Below the pieces are notes generated by a model. It did no database searches. It saw only the letters and a program-made list of their open reading frames with translations, and was not told where the DNA came from. From a virus (taxonomy: Duplodnaviria > Caudoviricetes), in the IMG/VR virus record IMGVR_UViG_3300037225_000975, positions 1 to 57,076 of that record: DNA of 57,076 bases; one strand, written 5' to 3'. Positions 6,286-26,724 of this stretch are shown one piece after another; the stretch's first letter is position 1, and the number at the start of each line of letters is the position of its first letter. The position numbers and the translations under genes are program-made.

Positions 6286-6759
6286 TCACCAATGCCAGGT
6301 GCCGGCGGGCTTGGCGTCTTCGTCGTGCGTGACGCCCGAGACGTGCATCGGCAGGCCGTCGAGCTTTGGATTGCCGGTGAGGAACGCGACTGCGGCGACG
6401 ATCTCGGAGTCGGCCTTGACGTGGGTGACCACCGCCTCACGGTCGACGATCCCGTCCTTGGTGGTGGTCGAGAGCTTGATGCGAGCTCCTGGACGAAGAC
6501 GAGGCGGATTCGCGACCGGAGGAGGAGCGACCGGAGGCTGCGGGACCGGGCCTGCCATGGCTCAGTCCTCCAGCTTTCCGCTCGGCTCGGTCTGCTTCAG
6601 CGAGCGACGGCCGACCTGGGAGAGCGCGTCGGCAAGCTTCGACTTGCCTTCCGGGGTGTGGAGCTTGGTCGTCTGGCCGGTCGGGGTCGAACCCGCCGCG
6701 GCGACCGCGGCTGCCATGTCGGAGGCGTGGCACTTGTCGGCGGAGTGGATGGGCTGCAT
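6286..6759 (-). CDS. Two small hypothetical proteins (6286-6558, 6562-6759)
   Basis: Tightly packed, with codon bias like their neighbours. Confidence 0.55.
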
Positions 6760-6784
6760 GGTGTGAGTTCCTTCGATGTGAGTG

Positions 6785-6860
6785 TGGCTGCCAGGGCTGG
6801 AATCGAACCAGCGACCTTCGAGTTAACAGCTCGCTGCTGCTACCGCTGAGCTACCCGGCA
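6785..6860 (-). tRNA. tRNA-Asn (GTT) with encoded CCA
   Basis: TGCCGGG acceptor, GCTC D-arm, anticodon loop CT-GTT-AA, GGTTCGATTCC T-arm, G73, CCA; 76 nt. Confidence 0.95.
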
Positions 6861-6865
6861 ATTCG

Positions 6866-7286
6866 CTACGCGCCAGTGCGCTGCTCGAGCGGCGGCTGGT
6901 CGCGATTCTGCGGGTTGGCCTGGACGAACTGGAGAGGGCGGGGGCGAATCGAGGCGATGCAGTCGTGGATGTTGCCGTGCGCCGCTACCGGGTAGCTGTT
7001 GACCTGCTCCTCGACGATCGCGTCTCCGGTCGCCTTGACCATCTCCTTCTGGGAGGTGGAGCCGTGCGGGCTGGAGGTGAAAGGTTTCTCGTGCATGTCA
7101 GACTCCGGGCTCGGGTGCGGGTTGCTGGGCGTACTGATTCAGCGACTGATCGACGTCTGCTCTGAAGCCGGCCATCACGCTCTTGACAGAGTTGTGGTTG
7201 GCGATGACGATCGGCTTCTCCAGGGCTGGGAGCGCCGAGTACTGCTGCATGCAGAGGTCGATGTTGTCGCGCGCTCTGTTGTCCAT
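6866..7286 (-). CDS. Two small hypothetical proteins (6866-7096, 7098-7286)
   Basis: Abutting ORFs between the portal gene and the tRNA. Confidence 0.5.
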
Positions 7287-7481
7287 GAGCGACTTCTATT
7301 CTTTCTTCTTCAGAAGAACACAGCCATCAGCGCGCTGCGATATCCGCAACTTTCACCTCGTACTTGAGCGAGAGTCGCGCTGGAATCGGAACTCCTGGGT
7401 AGCGCCAGCACTTCAGCCACCATCGGTGCCCGGACTTGGCGTGACGAGTCGAGTAACAGTTGAATGCTGGCATGGTCTGTC

Positions 7482-9155
7482 CTATGCCGGCGTCGGGCGG
7501 TCTGGGGACGTCGGGATCGTGGAGCCTGGGCCGCCACTCTTGCCGGAGATCTGCTTGGTGCCGGAGCGCGGGTTGGGAGGCGGAAGACCTTCGCCGAGTT
7601 TGGGAGGCTTGCCCTTCTGGCCTGGGAGCATCAGCGCTCCGGAGAGCTTCTGCTCGGCTTCGCGCTCCGTGGCGTCGTCGTCGATGTCGAAGGTTTCTGG
7701 CAGATAACCGCGGCGCTTCGCGGCGTCGAGGAGAGCTCGACGAGATAGGTCGCCGCTGGACCGCATCGCCAGGAGGGTGGTCATGTTGTTGACGATGTTG
7801 AGGCTGATGATGTAGTCCTCGTCGCACTTGACCTTGCCGGTCTTCTGCGCCTCCTCGTCCGAGACGTCGCTCCACTTGTCGACCAGCCGAAGGATCTGGT
7901 TCAGGAAGATCTCGAAATTCATCACGATCGACTGCAGCTCGCTGATCGCCTCCATCCCGTCGAGCGCCTTCGCCGTGGCTGTCGGGTTTCCCGAGTTGGC
8001 CGGCATGAGAAGCTGCAGCCCCAGGATCGCCATCTCCGCCTTGAGATCCTCGAGGTCCTGGCGACCGGCGCTGATGGCGTTGCCCGAGTGCTCGACGAAC
8101 TTGAGGTTCGCCTTCTCGTTGCGCAGCGTCCAAAGACTGTTCGGTCCGATCTCGAGGTTGGACGCTCCCCTGGGGTTGGCGTCCGTGCTTGACTTCGGAT
8201 TGATGCCCGTGGCCACCAGGATCGGGAACCGCGTGACCGACAGAATGTTGCGCTGGTCGGACGCCGACTGGAAGTGGGCGACGTTGACGTGGGCGAGATC
8301 GAGGAGCGGAGGGCGGCTCCGCATGAAACCTTCCTTGTCAGCGTAAAAGGTGACGAGCGGGATCTCGCCGAGGGTGTTGGGACCGGAGCGAGCGATCTCC
8401 CACTTGTCTTTCCGCTTCGGCATCTTCGTCCAGATCTCCCAGCGATCGCGATAGATGACCCTGATGGAGGGCTTCAGGATCTCGCCGAACTCGCCGTCAG
8501 GGACGACCTCGATCTGCATGATTCGCACCTGGGTGAGCACCTCCTTGCCACCGATCGTTTCCGAGCGAGCGCCGATGAGCGCCTCCGGGGCGATGACGAC
8601 GGCGTACGGCTTGCGCGTCGCGTCCTCGAGGGCGGTGTCGTCCTGCTCGCCCGTCGGGAAATCCACCAGCACGTGGCAGATACCCTTGCTCACCCCGCCG
8701 GTGAAGGCGCTGAGGGCGAAAAGATCGAGCGGAGAGCCGGCCCCGTCACAATCTTGGGCGAAATCGCGCAAATGCTGGGGAAAGTCGTCCGGGATCTTGA
8801 GAGGAGATCCGAACGGCTTGCCGACATAGCCCATCACCGTCTTGCGAAAGAAGTTCAACAGAGTCGCCCGCTGCAGGCGGTGGAGCCAGCTCTGATGCGT
8901 CTCCTTCTCGTAGCGCGGCAGGTATCGCTCGCCCGCCATCCGCATCGCCTCGGTGCCGCCCAGCAGCGACTCGACCATCCACCATCTCGCTTTCTGATCG
9001 CGATGGAAAGCGCACTCGTACGCCGGCGAGTCGGAATCCTGCTCCTTGACTTGCTGGTACGGCGTCGACATCGGCTGCATCGGCGGCGGGCGCAGAGCGC
9101 TCGTGTCGTCGATGGCGCCGACGGTTTGCGAGACTGCACCTGAGGGACCGGGCAT
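7482..9155 (-). CDS. Portal protein (DUF4055 type)
   Basis: LLGGTEAMRMAGERYLP, RATLLN, PPLLDLAHVNVAHFQSASD, TAT motifs; follows the terminase. Confidence 0.9.
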   Translation of the reverse strand: MPGPSGAVSQTVGAIDDTSALRPPPMQPMSTPYQQVKEQDSDSPAYECAFHRDQKARWWMVESLLGGTEAMRMAGERYLPRYEKETHQSWLHRLQRATLLNFFRKTVMGYVGKPFGSPLKIPDDFPQHLRDFAQDCDGAGSPLDLFALSAFTGGVSKGICHVLVDFPTGEQDDTALEDATRKPYAVVIAPEALIGARSETIGGKEVLTQVRIMQIEVVPDGEFGEILKPSIRVIYRDRWEIWTKMPKRKDKWEIARSGPNTLGEIPLVTFYADKEGFMRSRPPLLDLAHVNVAHFQSASDQRNILSVTRFPILVATGINPKSSTDANPRGASNLEIGPNSLWTLRNEKANLKFVEHSGNAISAGRQDLEDLKAEMAILGLQLLMPANSGNPTATAKALDGMEAISELQSIVMNFEIFLNQILRLVDKWSDVSDEEAQKTGKVKCDEDYIISLNIVNNMTTLLAMRSSGDLSRRALLDAAKRRGYLPETFDIDDDATEREAEQKLSGALMLPGQKGKPPKLGEGLPPPNPRSGTKQISGKSGGPGSTIPTSPDRPTPA

Positions 9156-9157
9156 GG

Positions 9158-10519
9158 CTAGAATCCTTTCACGACGGCGTCGCCGTCATGCTCGCATAGT
9201 TCGTTGAACGCGCCGGATGACGCGTCCACCTGGTCGTCGTGGCATCCCTTCGTGGGGAAGGACTCCAGTTCTGAGAGATATTCCTCGTTCCAAGGCGCTC
9301 GCACCAGCTTCACGTTGCCAGCCAGGCATTGCGCCGCGTACGGTCTGGCGCGCGTCTCCTTGCTCGCCGTGACCGGCACAGCGTAGACGTCGCGTCCCGA
9401 GAGGCGGCTGATGAGGTAGTGCATCTCCGCCTTGCCCGCCTGGCCAGGATCTTGCTCGAGAGCGATCGGGCAGCGAGGTTCCTGGGCGCTGACGCGCTTG
9501 ATGTTCTCGAGCACCTTCCCGGGACCGTCGTGGAATCGACGCACGTCGACCACGTAATACGTGCCGTTCTTGACGACCATGCGCACGCCGACCGTCGCGT
9601 CAGGATCGAGATTCGAGTCCGATATCTCCGTGGCGGCGCGATCCCAGTAACGGATCTCGTTGTCGAACTCTTTCGGAACGGCGTCCACCACGTCGAACAT
9701 CTGCCTCTTGAAGTACGAGCCGGCTTGCTGCCTGGCGTTCCAATTACCGCCATACAGTCTCGAGCGCTCGTGCGCCGGCAGCGACTTGAGGTTGGCGACG
9801 TAGCCCGGATCTTTCGCCAGCAGCAGCGGATTGTCGTGGATGTTGGCGCTGATGAACGTCACCGATTTCGGCTCGAGGCCTCGATCGACCAGGGACTTCT
9901 TCGTGTCGCCCCAGACGATCTCGCCCTTCTCTCTGGCCATCCATCGCACCTTGGAATCTCGCTCGGGAATCGGGTAGCCCTTCTCCTCGTCGATCCACCA
10001 GCTGATGAACCGCCTCACCCAGCTGTCTGGATCCGGGTTGCAGGTGGCGCGCACGTACGGTCTCACGCCACACATCGAACGGTTTCGAGAGAGCATGTAG
10101 AAGAATTGCTGCTGCTCGAAATGGCACAGCTCGTCGAACGCGATGTAGCAGATCTGCGATCCCTGCCAGTCATACACGTTCTTGGCATGCTGCATGTGAG
10201 CGAACTTGATGCGGCTGCCCGAGACCGGATCAAACCATTCCAAGGCAGACTCTTTCGGAACCAGGCCAGCAGGTCCGTAAATCTCCCTAGACGTGTCCCA
10301 CAATCCGCCTGGTGCCGTGATCTGCGGATAGGTGCGACGAAAGATGACCGCCGAGAACCCCGGCACGTGCACGTTGCGAAGTCCCTCGAGCAGCTCGACG
10401 AACGTCTTGCCTCCCCCAGCTGCCCCGCCATAGATGATGATGTCCGCGTCGATGGAGCAGAACCGCGCCTGCGGTCCCTCCTGCGGAGCGATCATGATCT
10501 CTTCGGCGACTGCAGTCAT
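9158..10519 (-). CDS. terL: Terminase large subunit
   Basis: YGGAAGGGKT Walker A, IAFDE Walker B, ATCNP, WDRA and HDDQVDA nuclease motifs; start at ATGA overlap. Confidence 0.95.
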   Translation of the reverse strand: MTAVAEEIMIAPQEGPQARFCSIDADIIIYGGAAGGGKTFVELLEGLRNVHVPGFSAVIFRRTYPQITAPGGLWDTSREIYGPAGLVPKESALEWFDPVSGSRIKFAHMQHAKNVYDWQGSQICYIAFDELCHFEQQQFFYMLSRNRSMCGVRPYVRATCNPDPDSWVRRFISWWIDEEKGYPIPERDSKVRWMAREKGEIVWGDTKKSLVDRGLEPKSVTFISANIHDNPLLLAKDPGYVANLKSLPAHERSRLYGGNWNARQQAGSYFKRQMFDVVDAVPKEFDNEIRYWDRAATEISDSNLDPDATVGVRMVVKNGTYYVVDVRRFHDGPGKVLENIKRVSAQEPRCPIALEQDPGQAGKAEMHYLISRLSGRDVYAVPVTASKETRARPYAAQCLAGNVKLVRAPWNEEYLSELESFPTKGCHDDQVDASSGAFNELCEHDGDAVVKGF

Positions 10520-11009
10520 CGCGGCAGCTTCACCTGGGCTAGGTGGCGATTGGCGAGATCCTTGCGCATCCATTCTTGCGCTTCTGACTTGCTATGAGCG
10601 AGCTGGCAGTCTCCGGCGACGCGCCAAGCGCCGTCGTGACCTCTGATGAAGCCCACCCAACAGACCCGCAGTTTCGTCGTCGACTCTACCTGCCGCTGGT
10701 TGAAGCAGTCGAAGCAGTACTTCGCCATCGGCACCCGGCGCATCGGCTGCCCGCACTTCGCGCAGGTCTTGTCGACGAGAATCGCCGGAGCGTGCGAGTA
10801 CGTCACGATCCGATCTCCTGGATGGCGCGCTTACGGAGAAGCATAGCTGCGTCTCGCTCCACCATCGACATCTGGTCGTCGCGGCGTCTCGCTCGCTCCT
10901 GCCTCTCGCGAATGGCTCGCGCAGCGCTGAATCCTCTCGTCACGTCAGCCCAGAATCTCTCGCGCGACCGGCGGCAGCGCTCGTCGACGAAACCGACGAT
11001 GCTGCTCAT
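10516..11009 (-). CDS. Two small hypothetical proteins (10516-10806 with CxxC/CxxC; 10803-11009)
   Basis: 4-nt start/stop overlaps on both sides. Confidence 0.55.
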
Positions 11010-11341
11010 GACTTCTTCTCTCTGCCGTTTGGAGGCAGCATGATCGTGACTCGTGGTCCTGCTTGGAGAGGCTGGCCGTCAGGTCCCTGGAGCGTGGTGA
11101 TGGCCGCTCGTTTCGATTCGCGATAGGGACCGAGCTCCTTCTCGGCGGCGAACCGCATCGATGGCGGCAGGATCTCCATCGCGATCACGCGACCTGGTTC
11201 TCGAATCCAGCGAAAGCGTTTCGCGTCCCATTTTCCTTTGTCGTCGAGTTCTTTCTGAGTCATGAAGCCCAGGCCGACGACGTCGCCTTGAGCGTACATC
11301 TCGAGATTTCGAATCGGATCGTGTTTTTTTCTTGCCGCCAC
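11006..11341 (-). CDS. terS: Putative terminase small subunit
   Basis: First gene of the packaging operon; R..AA.EL..Y...K..A and GPDGQPL..VTI.LP.NGR tail. Confidence 0.6.
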   Translation of the reverse strand: MAARKKHDPIRNLEMYAQGDVVGLGFMTQKELDDKGKWDAKRFRWIREPGRVIAMEILPPSMRFAAEKELGPYRESKRAAITTLQGPDGQPLQAGPRVTIMLPPNGREKKS

Positions 11342-11431
11342 GATCGCGATCTTGCGTCGATGGCTCTGAAATACACGAAAGCCTCACTCTGAGGCCAGAG
11401 ATGAGGGCGGGTCCATTTATGCCGGAGGGGC

Positions 11432-11739
11432 TGAGAATAACTATTTGGAGTTGCAAGTGATTGCTACCGCAACGATTTGCAACTTCCGAATCGGGGTTAT
11501 TCTCACGAAAGGGGGGGTATATAGTATGCATCTCCTTCCTCTCATCCTTCCTCAGCTACTTCCGAAGCAGCTCATTTTCTCATTGACTTCTTAAGATATT
11601 AGCTCTCTAATAACCACACTACAATAGGTACGGATTAGAGATACATGTCATACCCCCCCTTTGGTGAGAATAACTAGCCGGCCGAAGTCGCAACTAGCAC
11701 GCCCGCCATCGCTTACGACTCGGTCTGGTTATTCTCACC
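11432..11739. promoter_or_regulatory. AT-rich noncoding control region with a 25-bp inverted repeat and four GTTATTCTCA boxes (candidate ori/pac)
   Basis: Inverted repeat 11496-11520 / 11650-11674 (1 mismatch); extra boxes at 11432 and 11728. Confidence 0.65.
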
Positions 11740-11812
11740 CCTTCGGACGAAACCCCTCCCCGACCCCTTCCGGCCGCTTTTCGCCCCTCGCGATTCCAAA
11801 TCATCAAGCTCG

Positions 11813-12421
11813 CTATCTCGGAATCGCTGGACCCCATCCGACCACCTCCGCCACCCTGCGAGCCACCGCCTCGATCGATTCCGAGGCGTCGCAGAAAACG
11901 ATCTCGTCCCCGCCCCGACCCACTTCCTGGTCTCGATACGCCTCCCTCACTTTCTTTCCGAGCGAGTCGAACCTATCCGGGACCTCCCCTCCCCTGGCCG
12001 CGATCCTGGCATCCAGCGTCGAGTCGTCAGCTTCCAGGAAGACGACCTGAGACCAGCTCGGCTGACGAGCCCATCCTTCCAGCACCTTGCAGATGTCCGC
12101 CCCCTCGGCCTGGCGCATCGCGATCCTGTAAGCCAGATTCGAGACCCCGCACCGGTCCATCACCACCCGCAGCCCGGTCAGACGCAGGTTCTCCGCTCGC
12201 CGCATGCAGTCCACGTCCACCGCCGCGAAGGCGAGAGCCATCGCCTCCTCTCCCAGCTCGAACGCCGGATCCTTCAGGGGACCCCGGAGCAGCTCGCCAA
12301 GCCGCGTCCCTCCAGGGCATCGCAGGTAGACGGCACCCCACCCGCGTTCCAGCTCCCTGGCCACGCTGGTCTTCCCGCACCCGTCCGGACCTTCCAAGCA
12401 GCAGATCAGCGGATCGGTCAT
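11813..12421 (-). CDS. tmk: Thymidylate-kinase-like dNMP kinase
   Basis: LEGPDGCGKTS P-loop, PGGT..GE..R, VVMDR. Confidence 0.85.
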   Translation of the reverse strand: MTDPLICCLEGPDGCGKTSVARELERGWGAVYLRCPGGTRLGELLRGPLKDPAFELGEEAMALAFAAVDVDCMRRAENLRLTGLRVVMDRCGVSNLAYRIAMRQAEGADICKVLEGWARQPSWSQVVFLEADDSTLDARIAARGGEVPDRFDSLGKKVREAYRDQEVGRGGDEIVFCDASESIEAVARRVAEVVGWGPAIPR

Positions 12422-13209
12422 GCCTTCCCTTTCGTGATCACCCAGCAGCAGTTGGACGCCGCTTCCGGGTATTTTGGAGCTAAGAAATTCGCCAGCACGT
12501 CCCAAGAATAGAACTCGTGCAGCTCGTCGACCAGCGCCCGCTCCGCCGCGCTCATGACTCGCTTCATCGCCTGCGAGGTCATGAAGGTGCCGTGCGCCGA
12601 CCTCACCGCCAGCCCGGCCGCCTCGATCATCTGCTTCAGCTCCACCCACCGATACTCGTGCACGTGGTTCTTCGCCATGTGCTTCTCGTTGTAGACCGGC
12701 GTGCTGAGAAGGAGCACTCCATCCTTCCTCAGCTTCTCGCGGAAAGCCTCGAGCAGCTTGCGACCGTCATCCTTCTTCATGTGCTCGATGACCTCGAAGT
12801 TGACGATCACGTCGAACTGCCCGTCGATCTCGTCGGCGCGGCTCGTGAAATCGAACTCCTGGAGCACCTCGACCCACTTGCACTTGAACGGCTTCACCCG
12901 GTTCATGTCCACGCCCACGTATCTCCCGGGAATGTGGCTCATGGACGGTGCCAGCACTCGCACCAGCGGCAGATCCTGGCCGCACCCGACGTCGAGGACG
13001 CTCATGCCCTTCTTGATGAACCTGGTGGCGAACCCCCATCGAAAGAAATGCGCCGCGTAATCTCGATGCACCTTGTCGCCGTACTGGGCGGCTCGAAGCT
13101 GCGTCTTGTCGAACTTGCGATCGATCACGTCCAGGCGGTGCCGCCTGGGAGGCGGCAGCTCGACCGGCTCGATCGGCGCTGGTTTCGGTTTCTTGATTTT
13201 GACGATCAT
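12418..13209 (-). CDS. Class I SAM-dependent methyltransferase
   Basis: VLDVGCG, YVGVD, FDVIVNFEVIEHM, GVLLLSTP, HVHEY. Confidence 0.85.
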   Translation of the reverse strand: MIVKIKKPKPAPIEPVELPPPRRHRLDVIDRKFDKTQLRAAQYGDKVHRDYAAHFFRWGFATRFIKKGMSVLDVGCGQDLPLVRVLAPSMSHIPGRYVGVDMNRVKPFKCKWVEVLQEFDFTSRADEIDGQFDVIVNFEVIEHMKKDDGRKLLEAFREKLRKDGVLLLSTPVYNEKHMAKNHVHEYRWVELKQMIEAAGLAVRSAHGTFMTSQAMKRVMSAAERALVDELHEFYSWDVLANFLAPKYPEAASNCCWVITKGKA

Positions 13210-13523
13210 GGCACTGCCTCGTAGGTTGCCGCGAAGATGTCTGGCTTGCACGGATATCGCTCGCCCTTGATGCCGGTGATGACCCAATCGCCCGGGCAGA
13301 CGATGTGTCCACCCTCAAGGGTGTCGATCCAGCCATGTTCCAAGAGGCGCCTGTTGCAGTTCACGCACAGCGCATGTCCCGAAGTGTTCGGGTCATTATA
13401 GCGCCTGACGACCTTGCCCTCTATGAGTACCCAATCTTTCCCCACCATGTCGTCAGGATGGTCTCCGTTCTTCCACCATCGCGTCGCTTCGACTATGACC
13501 GGTTTCTTGCGGAACTTGCTCAT
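13206..13523 (-). CDS. Conserved phage protein (KFRKKPV..EA / PGDWVI / YPCKPDIF..TY family)
   Basis: Recognisable family motifs. Confidence 0.75.
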   Translation of the reverse strand: MSKFRKKPVIVEATRWWKNGDHPDDMVGKDWVLIEGKVVRRYNDPNTSGHALCVNCNRRLLEHGWIDTLEGGHIVCPGDWVITGIKGERYPCKPDIFAATYEAVP

Positions 13524-19188: not shown

Positions 19189-19478
19189 GCGATCTCCATC
19201 ACCACGTCCGTCGACTTCATTCCCTCCATGTCCTTGTCGCTAAGGACGTCGACGATGATCTGCATGCGCCTCTTTCCCGCCACCTTGACGAGCTCTTCTG
19301 ATGAGAAATGCTTCGCCAAGAACTGCGCCAGCGCCAGAGCGCACTTCATCACTCCTTCGCGCTTGGCTCTCTCCTCGCACTCGACCTGGGCTCTCACCGA
19401 CGGGTCGAGCAGATTCACCTTCACGTTCGTCTCGCATCGAGCTGCGAAGCGGATGAGTTTCGCCTTTGTCCTCTTCAT
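19185..19478 (-). CDS. Hypothetical protein
   Basis: ATGA overlaps, GGAG SD. Confidence 0.5.
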   Translation of the reverse strand: MKRTKAKLIRFAARCETNVKVNLLDPSVRAQVECEERAKREGVMKCALALAQFLAKHFSSEELVKVAGKRRMQIIVDVLSDKDMEGMKSTDVVMEIA

Positions 19479-20452
19479 GGCGCCACTCCTCTCGCCCATA
19501 GAGGAGCATCCACGACTGCCAGAGGAGCCCCCAGTTTCCTAGCACAGGCGAGGAGCTTCTCGCACCACCAGCCATCATCTGGGTCTTTGACACGCTCCAA
19601 AACTGAATAGACTTCGCTGAAGTCTCCGTTCCTGAATTCATTCTCTCGATCACGCACCCACTCAGGCACTCCTTCCTCAAAAAAGGATTTTGCGCACGCA
19701 ACGGACGGTTCTGGTACCGCGACTGCTAGCTTCAGCATCGCCGGCAGAGCGACGATCTGTGTCGCTTTCTCATAGTTCGAGTCGTAAAGGTGCATGGAAC
19801 CAACGACATGGAGATACTTGCCCAGTCGAAGATCGAGAGCCGCCGCCATCAACGCCTGGATCTGGCAGAAGCAGTGCACGTCATATGGAGTTCCCAACCA
19901 TGCATCGTTCGACCGCATCGACGTCTGGAGATGCAGACGACCATCCCTGGCCAGAAACTGCAGCGTGAGCGTGCATGGCAAATCCTTCCACTCTCCACGC
20001 TCCGCCTCGACCACGTCACCGGAATCGAACAGGGCCACCACCGCTCGACGATCCTCTCGCTTCTTCAGCAAGACGTCCAAAGCGACGCGAAGCGAGGAGC
20101 GGCCTCCTCCCTTCGCCGCGATACCTGGATTGGAACGCATCCGCTTGCCGTAAGCTCCCATGGCCTCGCCATCGTTGCAAAAACCAGCGTACTTACTTGA
20201 ATAGGCGGACATCATCTCGCTGTCTGATTTTCCCATCAGATACCAGAGCAACTCTGCCGACGCATAACCGGCGGACCATTTCCTCCGATCATCGGCGATG
20301 GCACAATACTGAGGGTTCGACAAACCACCGGCCCAACCGACGATCTCTCGACAACCACCGTTGCGGCTCGGCGTCTCTGACCCTTCTGCGAGATCTGCGA
20401 GCAGATCCGACCACATGCAGTCGAGGTTTGAGTGAGTTGCGATCTGGCTCAT
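19475..20452 (-). CDS. Thymidylate synthase homologue, dCMP-type (dCMP hydroxymethylase/methylase-like)
   Basis: AELLWYL, GAYG.R, RRAV, PC(160), MRSNDAWLGTPYD(191), GSMHLY. Confidence 0.85.
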   Translation of the reverse strand: MSQIATHSNLDCMWSDLLADLAEGSETPSRNGGCREIVGWAGGLSNPQYCAIADDRRKWSAGYASAELLWYLMGKSDSEMMSAYSSKYAGFCNDGEAMGAYGKRMRSNPGIAAKGGGRSSLRVALDVLLKKREDRRAVVALFDSGDVVEAERGEWKDLPCTLTLQFLARDGRLHLQTSMRSNDAWLGTPYDVHCFCQIQALMAAALDLRLGKYLHVVGSMHLYDSNYEKATQIVALPAMLKLAVAVPEPSVACAKSFFEEGVPEWVRDRENEFRNGDFSEVYSVLERVKDPDDGWWCEKLLACARKLGAPLAVVDAPLWARGVAP

Positions 20453-20474
20453 GCGCGGTTCTCCTGGAATGTGA

Positions 20475-20960
20475 TCATGAGATGGTGACTCTGACAAGCT
20501 CGACACCGCACATCTTGGCGAGAGATCTGACGATCCACTCACCCCTGACTGTTAATGACGGATATTTCTCGACATCATAAACGACCCGCTTGATGCCGCA
20601 CGCGCAGATTACGTCGCGCATGCAGGCAGGACATGGCAGGTGAGTGCAATACAAGGACGCGTCTGGCAATGACACGCCTGCCAGCATCGCCTTGCGAGTG
20701 GCGTTCTTCTCGGCATGAACCACCAGGTCATACTTGGTTAGAAGATCTTCCATCTCGATCTTTCGGGTCCACCATTCCTCTCGATCTTCCACGCCATGAG
20801 GGAAACCATTGTAACCCAGGAACAGACCGCCGGTCACCGGATCGTGAATGCAGGCTCCAACCTTGCTGGACGGATCTTTCGATCGAGACTGGGCCCAGGC
20901 CGTGGTCGTGAGCATGATGCTCTCGTCCATGCGGAATTTGGATGTGAGTGTCTTGGTCAT
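20475..20960 (-). CDS. dCMP deaminase
   Basis: SKDPSSKVGA, GYNGFP, HAEKNA, PCPAC. Confidence 0.9.
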   Translation of the reverse strand: MTKTLTSKFRMDESIMLTTTAWAQSRSKDPSSKVGACIHDPVTGGLFLGYNGFPHGVEDREEWWTRKIEMEDLLTKYDLVVHAEKNATRKAMLAGVSLPDASLYCTHLPCPACMRDVICACGIKRVVYDVEKYPSLTVRGEWIVRSLAKMCGVELVRVTIS

Positions 20961-22027
20961 GATAGGAAGTCGCAGATGGTGGATCCGATCGGGGAAGCAA
21001 GTTTCCGATTCGATCGTATCGCCGAGGCGGCCACGCCACCGATCCATCGTGCCGCTGGAGGGAGAACGGCCTTGGCGATCTGGGCGTACTTGTCATTGAC
21101 GCCACCAACGAACTCGTAGTCATGCGGATAACCGCACATCACCTGCTGCTCTTTCACCGTTAGCGGTCTATGGTGTGTCGGGTGGAAGAACTGAGGACCG
21201 CCGGTGATCGTGGGCGACAGCTCGTCCATCTGCAATCTGATGTTGAGAAAGCCAGGCCTGCCAGCCACCATGCCATGCGCGTTCCTCTCGTATTCCTTCC
21301 CAGCGTTCAACCGCTCGAAGGTCTCGTTGAGAGACGTTTCTCCAGGTTTCATGGCTTTGAGGATTCTCAGGTAGTTATCGCTCGGCACGGCGCCTTCCTG
21401 GGACGAACCTGCCGGGATCGAGGCCAAGGCTTCGCGCACCGTGACGATACCTCCTCCAGGAGGTCCCTCGACATCAACCTTCACCTTTGATGCCAGGAAG
21501 AAGAACCGCTTGCGACGCTGCGGCAACCCGCAATCTGCGCCGTTGAACGTGATCAACCAGGCATGATATCCGAGTTTGTTCACCTGCTCGACTCTCTGCT
21601 GGACGAACGCCGCGCCGTTCTTCATGGCGGCGGCGACCGACTCCCAAAGAAAGATTTTGGGGCGTAACTTCTCCAAAAGAGCGAAGAGGCGAACGGTGCA
21701 ATCGGTCCGACCGTCTTTCGACCACCTGGCTTCGTTCCGGTCTTCCTTGTCTCTCACCTTCACGCCGGCTTGAGACCATGACGCGCATGGCGGATTGCCG
21801 TAGAGCAGGTCGAACTGGTCTCTCGCGTAATCGGTAACCGGTCCCCAGTTGCTTTCCGGATAGAGGACGCCCAAGTCGGGCATGTTTTTCTTGGCAGTCT
21901 CCACGCCGAACGGTCCCTCCTCGAGATGGGCGAGCACCTTGAAGTGCTCCCTGATCCCGAGCGTGAACCCGCCAGCGTAGATGTGGCAACCGATGGCGGT
22001 CGGTTTTGGTTTTCTGGTGATGAGCAT
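20957..22027 (-). CDS. C5-cytosine DNA methyltransferase homologue with altered cofactor motifs (candidate carboxymethyltransferase)
   Basis: Motif IV GNPPC(81), VI E(129)SV, VIII PQRRKRFF, IX RPLTVKE...GYP, X YAQIAK(319)AV; motif I is HIYAGGF. Confidence 0.85.
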   Translation of the reverse strand: MLITRKPKPTAIGCHIYAGGFTLGIREHFKVLAHLEEGPFGVETAKKNMPDLGVLYPESNWGPVTDYARDQFDLLYGNPPCASWSQAGVKVRDKEDRNEARWSKDGRTDCTVRLFALLEKLRPKIFLWESVAAAMKNGAAFVQQRVEQVNKLGYHAWLITFNGADCGLPQRRKRFFFLASKVKVDVEGPPGGGIVTVREALASIPAGSSQEGAVPSDNYLRILKAMKPGETSLNETFERLNAGKEYERNAHGMVAGRPGFLNIRLQMDELSPTITGGPQFFHPTHHRPLTVKEQQVMCGYPHDYEFVGGVNDKYAQIAKAVLPPAARWIGGVAASAIRSNRKLASPIGSTICDFLS

Positions 22028-22028
22028 A

Positions 22029-22547
22029 TCAGTAGCCGAACCAGTCCTTGAGCAGGCCGGAGATGTCCGGTGGCGAGTAGTCAGCTCCCTTGCCCTTGTC
22101 TCCCTGATGAGAGGCGGCGGCCTTGTGCTTGGTCATGTTCGACCTGTGCACCTCCCAAAAAGCCGCGTCGAGAGGCACGTCAAGCTGGGTGGCCGTTCCC
22201 GCGGTCACGTAGAGCAGATCGGCCAGACCGTCGAGCAGCTCTACCTCGTCCAGCTCGTGCATCGCCATCACCACCTCGCCGAGCTCCTCGATCATGAGCT
22301 CTGCCCGGAGATATCTCTGATCCTTGGTGACCTTGAACACCTCCTTCAGATGAGAACTGATGTCCTTCAGATGAGATGCTGCTTTGCAGAGATCGAGTCG
22401 ATGGTTCTTGTCGAACGTCATCAACCTTGCTGGCGGCGGAGCACCAACTTTTTTCTGAAATTCAAGGACGGCCTGTTCGACCCTTCCTCGTTGGGGGATT
22501 CCATTTCTGTTGTTGGCTTGCTCTCTCGTTTCTTCTCCGTCTTCCAT
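22029..22547 (-). CDS. MazG-like all-alpha NTP pyrophosphohydrolase
   Basis: EELGE...DGLADLLYV...EVHRSNMTK; AGGAG SD at 22547. Confidence 0.85.
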   Translation of the reverse strand: MEDGEETREQANNRNGIPQRGRVEQAVLEFQKKVGAPPPARLMTFDKNHRLDLCKAASHLKDISSHLKEVFKVTKDQRYLRAELMIEELGEVVMAMHELDEVELLDGLADLLYVTAGTATQLDVPLDAAFWEVHRSNMTKHKAAASHQGDKGKGADYSPPDISGLLKDWFGY

Positions 22548-24622
22548 GACTGGTCTCCTGATTTTGCGCGCATCCAAAGATCTTGGATTCGCTGGTTGAT
22601 GATGTATTCCACGACCGGTCTGCCGACCTTGCTCGATTTCTTCCTGGGTGTCAAGATGCCGAACAGGGTGAGGTCGTCGAACTTGCGATAGATGGTTGCC
22701 GAGTTGACCTTCATCGCCTCCACTATGGCGCCTCGTTCTGCAGTTCCGCCAAGCTTCATCATCGCCTCGATGATGTCGATGTTGAACCCGTGAGCGGTGT
22801 CCATCGCCACTCTCTCGATGATCCCGTAGACCTCGGCATCCACTGACTTCTTGTCGAGAACGTGCGCGATGGAGAGACCGAGCTTCATGAGCTGCTTGGC
22901 CAGGCGAGTGCCATTCTCCGCGATAGGCCTGTAAACGACCACGTCGTCACGATACTTCTCTCGTTCCACCTGGGCTCTCATGGCTGCCACGAGTTGCACG
23001 AGAGCGGTGAGCCGTTGAGCATAGATTGGAGGCAGATCAGGCAACGTGTCAGGGTCGAGACGCCTGATTAGAAACCTGGAGACCATGAGCTTGGTCTCGG
23101 TCTCCATCTTCTTCTCGATGCCGACCATGCGAATAGCAGACTCGATGATGCTGTCAGCTTGCGCTCCCTCGAGCTTCGATATTTGCAACTTCAAGAACCG
23201 CTCGCCGAGCAGAGCTTGTCTGTTACCATGGATCGCCGATGTCACGCCGGCCAGGAGAGAGAAGTGGCAGTCCAGATACTCCCTGGTGATGCCGTTGCCG
23301 AACGTCTTCTGCACGTAGCCATCGTAGGCGCCGCGAAGAGTCGAGAACACCTCCTCCTGGGCGACGACCGGCATCGAGAGAATCTCGGTGAAATCCTTCG
23401 CCACCAGGGTCTTTCCCTTCAGACGAGGAATCAAGCTTGGATCCTTGGCGGATCCTGCGTCGCCTCTCCATCCAGAGATCAGGCAGTGAGGAGTCACCGA
23501 CGACCTGAACACGGCTCTTTTCGTTTCTGATAGCGCGCTCAGCAGCATCGTCTTGCCTGCTCCGGGAGGTCCGACCAGGTACATCCACACCGGATCACCA
23601 GGAATCTCGTTGGAGCTGATCACCGCCAGCGAGCACATGAGAGCGAGTTCGAGATCGTCGGTCATCACCACGTGCTTCTTGAACGTCTCGACGACTTCCT
23701 GAAACGTGGCCGGTTCGAGCGGCTCTCCGTTGGCATCTATCTCGCGCGGATCCTCCTCGTCGGTTGTTCTCTTGTCCTCGTCATGGTGTCTCGGTTTGTC
23801 GGAGAGCAATCCCATGATCGACTTGAACGTCATCGACGGACCGGCGCTCTTCATGCCGTCGACGATGTGATCTCTGATGTCCCAACCGGTCGGGCGCCCG
23901 ACAGGCCATGAGACATGCTTGACAGCTCTCGCCACTCCTGCGAGATTTCTGATGGCTCGGTCAGTGCCCATGTCGCCGGCGTTGTCGGCATCATAGCACG
24001 TGATGACTTGCTTGTTGCGGAACAGGTCGGCCCAGTGGCTCTTGAACACGGCGGCTCCAGGCACCGCCACCACCACGTCATCATCGACCTCCATCTCCTT
24101 CAGCAACCACATCATCGCGATAGCATCCCATTCGCCCTCGCACAGCCACACCCTGGTTCCCTCAGGAGCCTCCGCGAGCTTGTCTCCCATCCACAGCTGC
24201 ACCTTGCAACCGGCCGTGCTCATCATCATCTTGGTCTCTGGATCGTAACGTCTCACGTCATGGATCACTCCCCTGGGACTGGCGCACGGCACGAGCCAGT
24301 GGAAACCGTCATATCCCAGACCGGCTTCCTTCAAGACGCTGATCGGTAGGTGGCGGTGCTGAGAGAGCTCTGTCCACTGCTTCTTCGTCGCTCGGTCGGA
24401 ATTCATCTTGCAGATGGCGGTTAGGAACGAGATATGGTTCCCGCTTGCTCCGCACACCTTGCAATCCCAGACCGTCTTGTCGACATCGCAAAAGAAGTGC
24501 CTCTCCTTCCCGCACAGAGGACAGTCACCAACCCAGTTTCCAGAGCCGTTGGGAGCTCTCATGGCCGCTCCCCAGAAGTTGAGGGTGCGGATGATGTCCG
24601 GAGATTTCTCGGCTTCGCTCAC
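22421..24622 (-). CDS. Primase (Zn finger + TOPRIM) fused to AAA+ (MCM-like) ATPase and winged helix
   Basis: CPLC/CKVC; EGEWD and DAD; GPPGAGKT, KDF, ERF; C-terminal HTH; GTGA overlap with the polymerase gene. Confidence 0.8.
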   Translation of the reverse strand: MSEAEKSPDIIRTLNFWGAAMRAPNGSGNWVGDCPLCGKERHFFCDVDKTVWDCKVCGASGNHISFLTAICKMNSDRATKKQWTELSQHRHLPISVLKEAGLGYDGFHWLVPCASPRGVIHDVRRYDPETKMMMSTAGCKVQLWMGDKLAEAPEGTRVWLCEGEWDAIAMMWLLKEMEVDDDVVVAVPGAAVFKSHWADLFRNKQVITCYDADNAGDMGTDRAIRNLAGVARAVKHVSWPVGRPTGWDIRDHIVDGMKSAGPSMTFKSIMGLLSDKPRHHDEDKRTTDEEDPREIDANGEPLEPATFQEVVETFKKHVVMTDDLELALMCSLAVISSNEIPGDPVWMYLVGPPGAGKTMLLSALSETKRAVFRSSVTPHCLISGWRGDAGSAKDPSLIPRLKGKTLVAKDFTEILSMPVVAQEEVFSTLRGAYDGYVQKTFGNGITREYLDCHFSLLAGVTSAIHGNRQALLGERFLKLQISKLEGAQADSIIESAIRMVGIEKKMETETKLMVSRFLIRRLDPDTLPDLPPIYAQRLTALVQLVAAMRAQVEREKYRDDVVVYRPIAENGTRLAKQLMKLGLSIAHVLDKKSVDAEVYGIIERVAMDTAHGFNIDIIEAMMKLGGTAERGAIVEAMKVNSATIYRKFDDLTLFGILTPRKKSSKVGRPVVEYIINQRIQDLWMRAKSGDQSWKTEKKRESKPTTEMESPNEEGSNRPSLNFRKKLVLRRQQG

Positions 24623-26724
24623 GCCGTCACCGTCACGTCGGTCGTTTGCGACCATCTCTCAGTCGCTATCTTGAAACCAACCGGGAACGGGATCGGCGAA
24701 CCGAGCTTCATCGCGTCATCTCCCATGATCCTCACCGTATCCTGCTTGAGTTCTTTGCAGTCGATTTCCTTGTCGACCTCGATGATCAGCTCATCGTGGA
24801 TCTGGAGCAAGATCCTAGCCTGATCACGCCACTTGGTTATATAGCACTCGTCGAGACCGATCATCGCGTTCTTCATGACCTCTGCTGCTGTTCCCTGGAC
24901 GAGGTAATTGGTGGCGCGATATTCATAGCCCGGATCGATGCTGTAAACTCTGCCGAATGGATTGACAACGACTCCTTGATGTTTTGCGAGACCGACACTC
25001 TCGCCCATGAACTTGCGCACGCCGGGTAGTCTTTCATCATAATCGGAGATGAATTGTTTGGCTTCTTCCAAAGAAGTGCCAGTCATCTGGGCGATCTTTC
25101 CCGGCCCGCCACCATAGATCTTGCAAAACTGAAGATTTTTCGCGCGCTTGCGACCGATCTTGTATCGTTTCAGATTAGAGAGTTCTTCTTTAGAAAGAGA
25201 CGACTGGTCTTTCTTTGCAGAGATTTTCGCCAGTTTCTTGTCGTACGTGTGTCCCCAGATCAGGTCAGCGACGTTCTGATGGGCGTCTCCTCCAGCTACC
25301 AACGCGTTGATGAGCTCTTTGTCCTTCGCGAGCAAGGCCAGAATCCACACCTCGATTTGCGAGTAATCAGGCACGTAAAATAACGTGCCAGGTCGAGGAA
25401 CGAACACCTCTCTGGGACGATAGGGAACGTCGACTTTCTTCTTGCCTGATTCGTCGCTCGCCACGTTCTGAAGGTTAGGTCTCTCGGCGCTCATGCGCGC
25501 GGTCCTGGTGCCGGCTTGCTTGTAGTTTGGGTGAATGATCTTGCAACCGGTATCTAGTTCGAGCACGGACAGTGCCGCGTATTGCTCCGTGAAGTGCAGC
25601 ATCGTCGAGGCGGCTGAGTGGTGCAGAATGTGCCAGGCCAAAGGGTCGCCCATCACGAGCTTTTCAGAGCCATCAGCCTGATGCTCTCGCTTGACGCCAA
25701 TGTGCTCCAGGAACTCACCATCGCATTTCGGGTTCTGGCCAGTGTCCTGGCACACCAGGCAACCTGACCCCTTGCAATGCTGGCAGGCCACCGGCGCGTT
25801 GCCCTTCTTCTTGTTCTTGGAGTACCTGATCGGCGCGTGCTCTCGCACGCCGAAAAACTCCATCGTCATCTGCTTCGGCGAGGCGACGTTCAGGTCCTTG
25901 CCGCCAGCGAGATCGATGCCTTTCTTCGCTCTGTTGGCGATGGATCGATAGAATCCGGTCAGCTCGTCGTTTCTCTTCGAGTCGATGGCGACGCCGAGGC
26001 ACTCCATGCGCTCCAAGGTGGCCATGAGAGCCATCTCTCGGTCGTAAACTTCCTGGGCATCAGGATGGTTCTTGAAATGCTCGATGTGAGCTGCTCTAAG
26101 AGTCGCCACTCTCACGGCATCCGTGACTCCATACTTCTTCAGTACCTCGTGATCGGCGAGCCAGTAGTCAGCCTTGAGCTCCTCGGCTATGGCCCAACCT
26201 CTCTTCTTAGCCAATCTCCTGGCCGAGATGGTGGACTTCTGCAGATCGGTCTCGTCATCGATCGGAATGTCGAGGTACTTCTTGCACAGCGGCTTGAGAG
26301 CGTACGTTATCTCGTCCGAGGAGATGACCGAGGTACCGATGATGGTGCACAGCCACTCGCCGACCAGCGGCAACCCGACGGCCCTGGTCATGTGGCGATC
26401 GAATGGCGCATTGTGAGCGACTTTCGCGATCTTCTCGTTGACAAGGATCGGCTCCAAGGCCTTTCTCACGTCATCGGTCATGCTCACTTGCCTGGTCTGA
26501 GCACAAACCGGCAATCTAGCCCAAGCTGTTCTCCCATCGGGGTCGCAGAAAGTGAAGAAGAACGGTCGAGCTGGCCAGGTCTGTCTGTCGACGCCACGCT
26601 TTCCCCAGGGATCGAGCCCCGTGGTTTCCGTGTCGTACCCGAGCCAGTCACCTCGCAGAAGATCCAGGCCTTCATGACCTGGCACTCCAACCCACTCCCG
26701 TCTCCTCAGAATGGTTAGGGGCAT
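24619..26724 (-). CDS. polA: Family A DNA polymerase with 3'-5' exonuclease
   Basis: DTETTG, HNAPFD, Y...DA; PNLQN, DYSQIE, R..AK...F...YG, IHDEL. Confidence 0.95.
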   Translation of the reverse strand: MPLTILRRREWVGVPGHEGLDLLRGDWLGYDTETTGLDPWGKRGVDRQTWPARPFFFTFCDPDGRTAWARLPVCAQTRQVSMTDDVRKALEPILVNEKIAKVAHNAPFDRHMTRAVGLPLVGEWLCTIIGTSVISSDEITYALKPLCKKYLDIPIDDETDLQKSTISARRLAKKRGWAIAEELKADYWLADHEVLKKYGVTDAVRVATLRAAHIEHFKNHPDAQEVYDREMALMATLERMECLGVAIDSKRNDELTGFYRSIANRAKKGIDLAGGKDLNVASPKQMTMEFFGVREHAPIRYSKNKKKGNAPVACQHCKGSGCLVCQDTGQNPKCDGEFLEHIGVKREHQADGSEKLVMGDPLAWHILHHSAASTMLHFTEQYAALSVLELDTGCKIIHPNYKQAGTRTARMSAERPNLQNVASDESGKKKVDVPYRPREVFVPRPGTLFYVPDYSQIEVWILALLAKDKELINALVAGGDAHQNVADLIWGHTYDKKLAKISAKKDQSSLSKEELSNLKRYKIGRKRAKNLQFCKIYGGGPGKIAQMTGTSLEEAKQFISDYDERLPGVRKFMGESVGLAKHQGVVVNPFGRVYSIDPGYEYRATNYLVQGTAAEVMKNAMIGLDECYITKWRDQARILLQIHDELIIEVDKEIDCKELKQDTVRIMGDDAMKLGSPIPFPVGFKIATERWSQTTDVTVTA

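Follow-up and report, generated by a model that had tools for sequence, protein, structure and literature searches.

The analysis was carried out on a window of 57,076 nucleotides, which is the whole of the IMG/VR phage record IMGVR_UViG_3300037225_000975 (57 kb; rated 68% complete; genome G+C about 60%). Fifty-six ORFs of the window were scanned against Pfam or PHROGs; 29 of these had no match and could hide unknown modification enzymes. The genes and features considered here are as follows.

19475..20452, minus strand: thymidylate synthase (TS)-fold enzyme P0001, a predicted dCMP hydroxymethylase, 325 aa
20461..20465, minus strand: AGGAG ribosome-binding site of P0001, read off the sequence
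20475..20960, minus strand: P0002, a short single-domain protein of the dCMP/dCTP-deaminase family, 161 aa, motifs HAE and PCPAC
20957..22027, minus strand: C5 cytosine DNA methyltransferase, with YAGGFTLG, NPPC, ESV and QRRKR, which we take to be motifs I, IV, VI and VIII, intact
22029..22577, minus strand: MazG / PRA-PH-type all-alpha NTP pyrophosphohydrolase by profile match, with dCTP or dUTP as its presumed substrate
22421..24655, minus strand: primase-helicase (zinc ribbon, Toprim, P-loop), which heads a tightly packed gene run
24619..26724, minus strand: family A DNA polymerase (PolA) with 3'-5' exonuclease, the would-be incorporator of modified dCTP
11813..12421, minus strand: thymidylate-kinase-like dNMP kinase, a putative 5hm-dCMP kinase, 202 aa, P-loop GPDGCGKTS

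The ATG of P0001 is at 20452, and AGGAG is located 8 nt upstream of it, inside the 22-nt gap that separates the stop codon of the upstream deaminase gene from the start of the TS gene. An alternative GTG start at 20542 (355 aa) was rejected; the longer gene would run 68 nt into that of the deaminase, and this GTG has no AGGAG. The ATG of P0002 overlaps the stop codon of the upstream C5 methyltransferase (ATGA). The likely start of the MazG-like gene, the ATG at 22421, overlaps the primase-helicase stop (TGATG), and the ATG of the kinase overlaps the stop of an upstream SAM methyltransferase (ATGA). The latter methyltransferase (12418-13287) was considered as a pathway member and set aside, as its homologue occurs in just one of 80 related loci; it has no solved relative at E<=0.001. 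When the 8 kb around the locus was compared with GenBank phages at the DNA level, a single 125-base piece (2% of the query, 73% identity) was matched in each of two records. There is no close sequenced relative at the DNA level among GenBank phages.

P0001 belongs to the thymidylate synthase superfamily by both profile and fold. It matches Pfam Thymidylat_synt (PF00303) with E 1.9e-21 and 76.8 bits (cut-off 24.3) and the PHROG 'thymidylate synthase' families with E as low as 1e-38, and its relatives are labelled 'thymidylate synthase' in database annotations and PHROG. The catalytic set of the superfamily is present as C160, E67, Y101, R180, H221 and Y223, equivalent to C146, Glu58, Tyr94, Arg166, His207 and Tyr209 of E. 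coli, and none of these residues is changed in more than one of the 72 family members (P0001 and 71 database relatives). P0001 is not a canonical ThyA, since Asn177 is replaced and the best NCBIfam ThyA equivalog score is 73.2 bits against a cut-off of 327, below all ThyA equivalog cut-offs. In a sequence search of solved structures the best relative was the CMP hydroxymethylase MilA (E 1.4e-24), compared with 1.3e-16 at best for true thymidylate synthases. The AlphaFold model of P0001 (pLDDT 92.3, pTM 0.93) gave 396 PDB matches at E<=0.001, with TS-fold proteins throughout among the matches listed. The match to MilA spans the entire protein (TMq 0.82, 329 columns), whereas TS structures cover the core alone (TMq about 0.6). 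The part left outside is a MilA-type helical C-terminal domain, which begins at about residue 235 and replaces the TS-like closing tail.

P0001 is the sole PF00303 match in the record, and no ThyX was found in it at its 68% completeness. The same holds for each of five related records, with exactly one PF00303 match and no ThyX; two of these are 100% complete with terminal repeats, one is 91% and one 87% complete, and one is an unrated circular GenBank genome. The first-pass annotation had described a TS homologue adjoining a deaminase, with no canonical ThyA. Both statements are borne out, the former by the 22-nt gap and by the PF00383 match of P0002 (E 8.6e-16, 58.1 bits, cut-off 25). A phage without its own ThyA is ordinary.

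The motif RSNDAWLGTPYD is present in P0001, and its last Asp is residue 191, counted from the ATG at 20452. In a MAFFT alignment Asp191 shares a column with N177 of E. coli ThyA and D179 of T4 gp42, the position to which it had been assigned earlier. The T4 residues recovered from this alignment (E60, C148, S169, D179, H216, Y218) agree with the numbering given in the MilA paper. All 72 family members have Asp at the N177 position, so it is not a chance substitution. Further key residues of P0001 are the nucleophile Cys160, Thr161, Met179, Arg180, Ser181, Asn182, Asp183, His221 and Tyr223. Asp157, three residues before Cys160, occupies the E. coli L143 position, where Asp is found in 71 of the 72 members and also in T4 gp42, SPO1 gp29 and MilA. 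In comparison with E. coli ThyA, His147, Gln165 and Leu143 are all substituted. Asp183, at the E. coli D169 position, is retained in all 72 members, whereas RB69 gp48 has Asn in the same column. The deoxyribose-preference residues are Ser181 (S167 equivalent) and Arg135 (R126 equivalent).

Fourteen active-site positions were compared across characterised enzymes (-3 from Cys, 58, 94, 146, 147, 165-169, 173, 177, 207 and 209). P0001 is identical to T4 gp42 at 14 of 14. Departures from this signature are seen in Xp12, which makes 5m-dCMP (at -3, 147, 165 and 168), in RB69 gp48, which makes 5-hydroxy-dCMP (at -3, 168, 169, 173 and 209), and in SPO1 gp29, which makes hm-dUMP (at 147, 165, 173 and 177). 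According to published work, N177D goes with dCMP, L143D/E with a hydroxymethyl product and D169N with 5-hydroxylation, and an acidic residue at the L143 position lets water reach the exocyclic methylene (PMC13326640). S167 and R126 are reported to go with deoxyribose, MilA having Ala and Lys there (PMC5175136). P0001 has the residues expected of a dCMP hydroxymethylase, namely Asp at N177, Asp at L143 and the Ser167/Arg126 equivalents, and it does not have the Asn for Asp169 of a 5-hydroxy-dCMP synthase of the RB69 gp48 / DLP3 gp80 type. With an Xp12-type dCMP methylase it shares Asp177 but neither the four pocket residues (Asn, Pro, Leu, Ser at 143, 147, 165, 168) nor the TS-like C-terminus, a set of features drawn from our own comparison with one characterised lineage and not an established definition. 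The L143 rule is imperfect, because Xp12 has Asn at that position and no bulky hydrophobic residue. The prediction of a hydroxymethyl rather than a methyl product is drawn from residues that correlate with activity in a small number of characterised enzymes. The Asp at 177 together with the T4 gp42 signature supports the earlier proposal that the TS homologue is of the dCMP type and not of the dUMP type.

A maximum-likelihood tree was built by a quick search from 32 TS-fold sequences, comprising 23 of the 72 family members, spread over the E-value range, and nine references. In this tree E. coli ThyA and the Xp12 TS form a pair (SH-aLRT 98) apart from the P0001 clade. It is resolved for this pair and for the inner P0001 clade only, and its deeper branching is subject to long-branch attraction. 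The tree would thus lend weak support to a separation of the P0001 clade from the methylase pair.

To describe the neighbourhood, 80 IMG/VR loci were surveyed over +/-8 kb with jackhmmer. The kinase was present in 66 loci, the deaminase in 51, MazG in 31 and the C5 methyltransferase in 14, and the recurring order is primase-helicase/MazG/C5MT/TS/kinase/deaminase/PolA. At least 585 matching stretches are present in IMG/VR. Among cultured phages, the relatives in Bacillus phage G (gp319) and Enterococcus phage VPE25 share the signature and adjoin DNA glucosyltransferases, and VPE25 DNA is reported to resist bisulfite conversion (PMC4999554). The closest GenBank phage protein, the 'pyrimidine hmase' of Caudoviricetes sp. 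ctIqW946 (MW202657.1), is known from sequence alone; it is 41% identical over 231 residues and has the same 14-position signature. Its genome also encodes a HaeIII-like methylase, a DNA polymerase, a deoxycytidylate deaminase and an NTP-PPase with 49% identity to the MazG-like protein of this window. The genes are arranged in another order, and apart from this the two genomes show no relationship in their DNA (2% of 8 kb aligned).

The fold, the active-site signature, the order and coupling of the genes and the conservation of the gene set in relatives are established. They are best explained if P0001 is a folate-dependent dCMP hydroxymethylase (5hm-dCMP synthase), the core of a T4-like pre-replicative cytosine-replacement pathway encoded by the compact run of replication genes, and we consider this probable. 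As part of the same reading, P0001 probably resembles T4 gp42 in its chemistry and MilA in its architecture. All the substrates and the product are inferred, as is 5hmC in the virion DNA. The MazG-like pyrophosphatase would return dCTP (and/or dUTP) to the monophosphate. Asp191 would hold dCMP while Cys160 attacks its C6. The methylene of CH2-THF would be transferred to C5, and hydration instead of reduction would then yield 5hm-dCMP and THF. Regeneration of THF by hydroxymethylation has been described (PMC5175136), and no DHFR was found in the record by family search. The thymidylate-kinase-like enzyme and a host NDP kinase would convert 5hm-dCMP to 5hm-dCTP, which would be incorporated by the phage PolA. 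Of the two options put forward in the first-pass annotation, the better fit is the one in which modified dC is incorporated by way of the kinase (11813-12421); in 66 of 80 loci a homologous thymidylate-kinase-like ORF lies less than 8 kb from the TS gene. The deaminase would act as T4 Cd does, converting dCMP (perhaps dCTP too) to dUMP, so that the dC pool is lowered and host ThyA is fed for dTMP. Production of dUMP for host ThyA appears the most likely role of the adjacent deaminase. A dTMP-supply role is less compelling at about 60% G+C.

T4 gp42, a proven 5hm-dCMP synthase, has the TS fold along with the identical signature, and the T4 accessory set of NTP pyrophosphatase, dNMP kinase and dCMP deaminase has its analogue here. 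The two systems differ in several respects. T4 gp42 has 246 aa and is without the roughly 90-residue helical C-terminal domain of P0001; T4 has glucosyltransferases, td and frd, for which no counterpart was found in this record; and T4 has Dam, where this phage has a C5 methyltransferase instead. P0001 and T4 gp42 show very little overall similarity (28% over 78 residues, E 7e-7), which counts against the hydroxymethylase reading. Glucosyltransferase, TET/JBP and carbamoyltransferase genes were found neither among the 56 ORFs scanned with Pfam or PHROGs nor by family search. Family searches of the record for TET/JBP and the T4 beta-glucosyltransferase (PF12851, PF09198) gave no match, but the controls matched no genome either, which makes these two negatives weak. 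MilA, the CMP 5-hydroxymethylase of Streptomyces rimofaciens (PDB 5B6D/5JNH), matches the full-length fold of P0001 including the C-terminal domain, and has Asp at the N177 and L143 positions as P0001 does. It is reported to prefer ribo-CMP via Ala176 and Lys133', where P0001 has Ser181 and Arg135 (PMC5175136). MilA serves antibiotic biosynthesis, whereas the P0001 gene lies in a phage replication operon.

The neighbourhoods described by MetaGPA (Yang et al. 2021 eLife, Yang et al. 2024 bioRxiv) contain a deaminase, a TS with Asp177, PRA-PH and PolA, and all four Pfam domains are adjacent here too. As described there, the authors mined IMG/VR, the source of the present record also, for deaminases beside Asp177-type TS homologues. 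The characterised members are reported as 5m-dCMP synthases and 5mC-selective deaminases, whereas P0001 has the hydroxymethylase signature.

P0002 has the zinc motifs of its family, VVHAEKNA and LPCPAC in the translation, and is matched by human DCTD at E 2.6e-17. Its identity is 41.6% to the deaminase of PaMx11, 38% to those of N4-like roseophages and 35% to that of Xp12. Typing of its substrate by similarity was tried and given up, P0002 being about equidistant from the hmU (PaMx11), 5mC (Xp12) and N4-like roseophage deaminases. According to the Yang et al. 2024 preprint, preference for modified C among the mSCD deaminases is polyphyletic and without a sequence signature, and tested deaminases in such neighbourhoods often preferred C5-modified cytosine. 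The closest solved relative of the MazG-like protein is DR2231. A pairwise comparison with the T4 dCTPase gp56 gave no similarity (E 56), so gp56 homology cannot be used to label it a dCTPase; that role is a guess.

Other activities of P0001 have to be weighed against dCMP hydroxymethylation. It might be a dCMP methylase that makes 5m-dCMP, as in Xanthomonas phage Xp12, the deaminase turning part of the 5m-dC pool into dTTP and ThyA being dispensable. Xp12 also has Asp at N177 and a TS and a dCMP deaminase side by side, and its TS is 28% identical to P0001 over 202 residues. Neither ThyA nor ThyX was found in this record or in the five related ones, and P0002 is of the same short single-domain type as mSCD-B5, with 7FH4, 4P9C and 1VQ2 as common PDB neighbours. 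Yang et al. (2024) reported that, of 149 deaminase genes located on modified contigs, 104 were less than 3 kb from a TS gene, with PRA-PH and PolA domains as here, that 5 of 7 tested linked TS homologues gave 5mdC and that 34 of 194 soluble deaminases preferred 5mC. We nevertheless regard this activity as unlikely. P0001 and Xp12 have, respectively, Asp and Asn at L143, Thr and Pro at 147, Met and Leu at 165 and Asn and Ser at 168, and P0001 equals T4 gp42 at all four. Xp12 keeps the TS-like C-terminal segment in place of the MilA-type helical domain, the quick tree separates ThyA and Xp12 from the clade of P0001, and the DHFR that stands beside TS and deaminase in Xp12 was not found in this record to recycle DHF. 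The suggestion of a cytosine-first route to dTMP is left unsupported: it needs a dCMP methylase, and the hydroxymethylase signature of P0001 argues against it, as do the MilA-like C-terminus and the failure to find DHFR in the record. Such a route to thymidine has already been described for 5mC phages, where it is the triphosphate that is deaminated (Yang et al. 2024 preprint). Ordinary thymidylate synthesis is hardly credible, with Asp instead of Asn at 177 in 72 of 72 members, His147, Gln165 and Leu143 all substituted, a score far below every NCBIfam ThyA equivalog cut-off and a MilA-like domain in place of the C-terminal closing tail; this is so even though P0001 matches PF00303, its relatives are named 'thymidylate synthase' in PHROG and databases, and methylation of deaminase-derived dUMP is the classical dTMP route.

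A different chemistry or sugar is very improbable, that is, a flavin-dependent 5-hydroxy-dCMP synthase of the RB69 gp48 type or a CMP (ribo) hydroxymethylase of the MilA type. The closest solved structure is indeed MilA, and RB69-type enzymes share Asp177 and are likewise acidic at the L143 position. The diagnostic D169N is missing, however, with Asp183 kept in 72 of 72 members; Ser181 and Arg135 stand in place of the ribose residues Ala176 and Lys133' of MilA, as in deoxy-specific enzymes; and the gene is located in a DNA-replication operon. P0001 might also make 5hm-dCMP while a modification-selective P0002 converts it to 5hm-dU nucleotides, so that one TS-fold enzyme feeds hmC and hmU. The deaminase gene is translationally linked to the TS gene and directly upstream of it, 51 of the 80 related loci have a deaminase no more than 8 kb away, and mSCD-B5 is reported to accept 5hmdCTP and 5mdCTP (Yang et al. 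2024). In the same report 5hmdU arose in vivo from just 7 of 90 TS-linked deaminases, all seven beside predicted methylases. No dTTPase, 5-hmdU DNA kinase or other hmU-pathway marker was seen in the ORFs scanned, and the nearly equal similarity of P0002 to deaminases from phages with differing DNA types gives no hint of specialisation. We hold such a dual supply to be improbable. The version of the cytosine-first idea in which the deaminase makes hm-dUMP or hm-dUTP is conceivable but unsupported.

If P0001 is a dCMP hydroxymethylase, one more siphophage lineage would build 5hmC DNA pre-replicatively. Its long MilA-like enzyme, unlike the short T4 form, would be useful for predicting restriction/CRISPR evasion and as an enzyme source. 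No new pathway is opened, since the Asn/Asp rule, the neighbourhood and the deaminase-based thymidine route are all in print.

The C5 methyltransferase scores 97.7 bits against PF00145 (cut-off 22) and has the motifs listed above. Such an enzyme needs unsubstituted cytosine, and its intact state in the operon argues against complete replacement. The first-pass annotation had seen a paradox here, to be resolved by the deaminase; the paradox is real, but it can be stated without recourse to the deaminase hypothesis. Two products from one TS-fold enzyme (hmU, by the deaminase, beside hmC), or two cytosine layers (partial 5hmC replacement with the remaining C methylated, giving 5hmC and 5mC), would be improbable, and neither arrangement was met in the literature searched. 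The one question that could repay work is why the operon retains an intact C5 DNA methyltransferase beside the predicted dCMP hydroxymethylase, as in 14 of the 80 related loci.

On the minus strand of the window, one compact series of genes leads from PolA to the thymidylate synthase (TS) homologue.

Genes of the packed run and other genes of the window
24619-26724, minus strand: PolA, part of the packed run
22421-24655, minus strand: primase-helicase, part of the packed run
ORF from 22577, likely start 22421, minus strand: MazG/PRA-PH-type NTP pyrophosphatase, start overlaps the primase-helicase stop (TGATG)
20957-22027, minus strand: C5 cytosine DNA methyltransferase, begins 1 nt past the MazG stop
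20475-20960, minus strand: deaminase P0002, 161 aa, PF00383, ATGA overlap with the methyltransferase stop
ORF 19475-20542, likely ATG 20452, minus strand: TS homologue P0001, 325 aa, Pfam Thymidylat_synt (E 1.9e-21)
12418-13287, minus strand: class I SAM methyltransferase, Methyltransf_23 (E 1.2e-18)
11813-12421, minus strand: thymidylate-kinase-like kinase, ATGA overlap with the SAM methyltransferase
7482-10573: terminase and portal genes

The ATG at 20452 lies 8 nt 3′ of an AGGAG and 22 nt beyond the deaminase stop codon. With this start P0001 has 325 aa, and the last residue of the motif RSNDAWLGTPYD is Asp191, the number given in the first-pass annotation. Alignments with sequences from annotated records place Asp191 in the column of E. 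coli ThyA N177 and T4 gp42 D179, in agreement with that annotation. Asn or Asp at this position is the textbook rule for dUMP or dCMP specificity, and Yang et al. 2021 (PMC8670742) applied it on the scale of metaviromes. Identity of P0001 as a canonical ThyA was rejected, its best NCBIfam ThyA equivalog score, 73 bits, falling far short of the 327-bit cut-off. The window is a whole IMG/VR virus record (57,076 bp, linear), with one PF00303 match only and no ThyX match. It is rated 68% complete by CheckV; related records rated 100%, with terminal repeats, measure 56.4 and 60.7 kb and a circular GenBank relative 56.3 kb, so the window may be nearer complete than its rating implies. Since the record is possibly incomplete, five relatives were also searched for PF00303 and ThyX: a circular GenBank genome and four rated records, of which two are 100% complete and have terminal repeats and the other two reach 91% and 87%. 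All five had exactly one PF00303 match and none had ThyX, and the earlier statement that canonical ThyA is lacking thus holds.

The solved protein nearest to P0001 by sequence is the CMP 5-hydroxymethylase MilA (E 1.4e-24), true thymidylate synthases scoring 1.3e-16 or weaker. A structure predicted by AlphaFold from 21 sequences of the family (pLDDT 92.3, pTM 0.93) matched MilA from end to end, helical C-terminal domain included (TMq 0.82, 329 columns), whereas TS structures covered the core alone (TMq about 0.6). In E. coli ThyA numbering, N177D is reported to select dCMP, an acidic residue at L143 to accompany hydroxymethyl rather than methyl products, and D169N to mark flavin-dependent 5-hydroxy-dCMP synthases (PMC13326640). 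Deoxyribose-specific enzymes are described as marked by Ser167 and Arg126, where MilA has Ala and Lys (PMC5175136). At these positions P0001 carries Asp191 (177), Asp157 (L143), Asp183 (169), Ser181 (167) and Arg135 (126). Over a signature of 14 positions (−3 from the catalytic Cys, 58, 94, 146, 147, 165-169, 173, 177, 207 and 209) P0001 is identical to T4 gp42 at all 14; four differ from Xp12 TS (5m-dCMP), five from RB69 gp48 (5-hydroxy-dCMP) and four from SPO1 gp29 (hm-dUMP). In a quick ML tree E. coli ThyA and Xp12 TS were paired (SH-aLRT 98) apart from the P0001 clade, the remaining forks being without support.

A search of 5.8 billion proteins gave 71 relatives of P0001 (30-61% identity). 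All come from metagenomes, and contigs of 40-67 kb carry several of them. Asp177 is present in 72/72 sequences (query included) and Asp at −3 from Cys in 71/72; the dCMP-type assignment first proposed is supported. The exception, the database relative P0062, has Asn there as in the Xp12 methylase, and judged by this residue might make a different product. Relatives are encoded in at least 585 IMG/VR stretches. Iterative profile searches seeded with proteins of the window covered ±8 kb around the best 80 of these. A thymidylate-kinase-like ORF was found at 66 of these 80 loci (within 3 kb in 59), a count open to inflation by profile drift, though these ORFs have a median length of 191 aa, which suits a kinase; a deaminase was found at 51, a MazG-like ORF at 31 and a C5 methyltransferase at 14, all on the strand of the TS gene. 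The order primase-helicase/MazG/C5 methyltransferase/TS/kinase/deaminase/PolA recurs (e.g. L020, L024, L025, L033), and the window shows a rearranged version of this gene set. Cultured-phage relatives with the P0001 signature adjoin DNA glucosyltransferases: Bacillus phage G gp319, with a thymidylate kinase and a deaminase also near, and Enterococcus phage VPE25, whose neighbouring gene is annotated beta-glucosyltransferase and whose DNA is reported to resist bisulfite conversion (PMC4999554). In Brevibacterium phage LuckyBarnes, gp41 (L089 4064-5617), a 517-aa TS homologue directly upstream of two annotated glucosyltransferases, has Asn at 177 and Asp at the L143 position, a dUMP-hydroxymethylase type signature, which suggests glycosylated hmU and not hmC in that phage.

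What is observed is the fold, the residues for catalysis and specificity, the operon structure and the conservation of the gene set. By inference from sequence, model and context, P0001 is most likely a dCMP hydroxymethylase acting in a pathway like that of T4. The MazG-like enzyme would convert dCTP (or dUTP) to the monophosphate, P0001 would convert dCMP and CH2-THF to 5hm-dCMP and THF, the kinase with host NDK would phosphorylate the product, and PolA would incorporate it into DNA. P0002 would turn dCMP or dCTP into dUMP for host ThyA. A dCTPase role for the MazG-like enzyme is the weakest step, because a search for similarity to T4 gp56 gave none and its closest structure is DR2231, a dUTPase-like MazG.

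The first-pass annotation had favoured a cytosine-first route to thymidine or hmU through the adjacent deaminase. P0002 is indeed a dCMP/cytidine deaminase of PF00383 in which HAE and PCxxC motifs are present, and it lies directly upstream of P0001. Yang et al. 2024 (bioRxiv 10.1101/2024.12.05.627091) describe a neighbourhood of dCMP deaminase, TS with Asp177, PRA-PH, and PolA with exonuclease, the deaminase/TS/PRA-PH/PolA arrangement being that of the window; in the same source 104 of 149 deaminase genes on modified contigs have a TS gene within 3 kb. As IMG/VR was mined there, the window's contig may be among the candidates. Citing older Xp12 labelling data, those authors propose that 5mC-selective deaminases turn 5m-dCTP into dTTP, bypassing ThyA, and the idea is thus already in print for methylase-bearing phages. 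For the P0001 enzyme this route is unlikely. In the in vivo screen of that work 5hmdU was made by 7 of 90 TS-linked deaminases, each of the 7 being linked to a predicted methylase; this suggests indirectly that a deaminase next to an enzyme of hydroxymethylase type is in most cases not an hmC deaminase, although negatives could also reflect failed expression. Xp12 TS keeps a C-terminal segment alignable with the E. coli tail, whereas P0001 is without it, and DHFR adjoins the Xp12 TS and deaminase, whereas a search of the window's record gave no DHFR. The solved neighbours of P0002 are human DCTD (E 2.6e-17), 7FH4, 4P9C and T4 Cd. A figure legend in Yang et al. 2024 identifies 7FH4 as the bifunctional dCMP/dCTP deaminase of PBCV-1; the selectivity trait is described there as polyphyletic, and no signature is given for it. 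Similarity links P0002 to deaminases of no single DNA type, so its preference for C or C5-modified C cannot be read from sequence.

No catalytic motif is missing from the C5 methyltransferase, which is retained as a conserved module member in 14 of the best 80 of at least 585 loci and requires unsubstituted cytosine in DNA. Its presence beside a predicted hydroxymethylase fits partial replacement, a DNA target other than mature phage DNA, or another role. A search of the record for TET/JBP found none, with a weak control. No discussion of this pairing turned up in the papers retrieved, which is not proof that it is unpublished.

The SAM methyltransferase coupled to the kinase has a homologue in 1 of the best 80 loci, and no solved relative was found at E≤0.001. 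An ORF at 36539-37447 (plus strand, 302 aa) has a below-cut-off uracil-DNA glycosylase superfamily match (E 1.6e-4, 22.2 against 24.3 bits), matches PHROG 12275 of unknown function (E 6.9e-16) and has a homologue in one of these 80 loci, L038. In 11 of the 14 loci with a C5 methyltransferase (L008, L018, L019, L020, L023, L024, L025, L032, L033, L036, L046) motif IV reads GNPRC (SNPRC in L046) rather than the usual P-C dipeptide; NPPC is kept in the window, L038, L076 and L079. Ten of these ORFs lie directly 5′ of the TS gene, at about 6400-8150 in locus coordinates, and that of L036 lies 3′ of it (11189-12673). Since they retain the Cys as well as motifs I, VI and VIII while motif IV differs, the GNPRC enzymes look like a distinct subfamily linked to the hydroxymethylase module.
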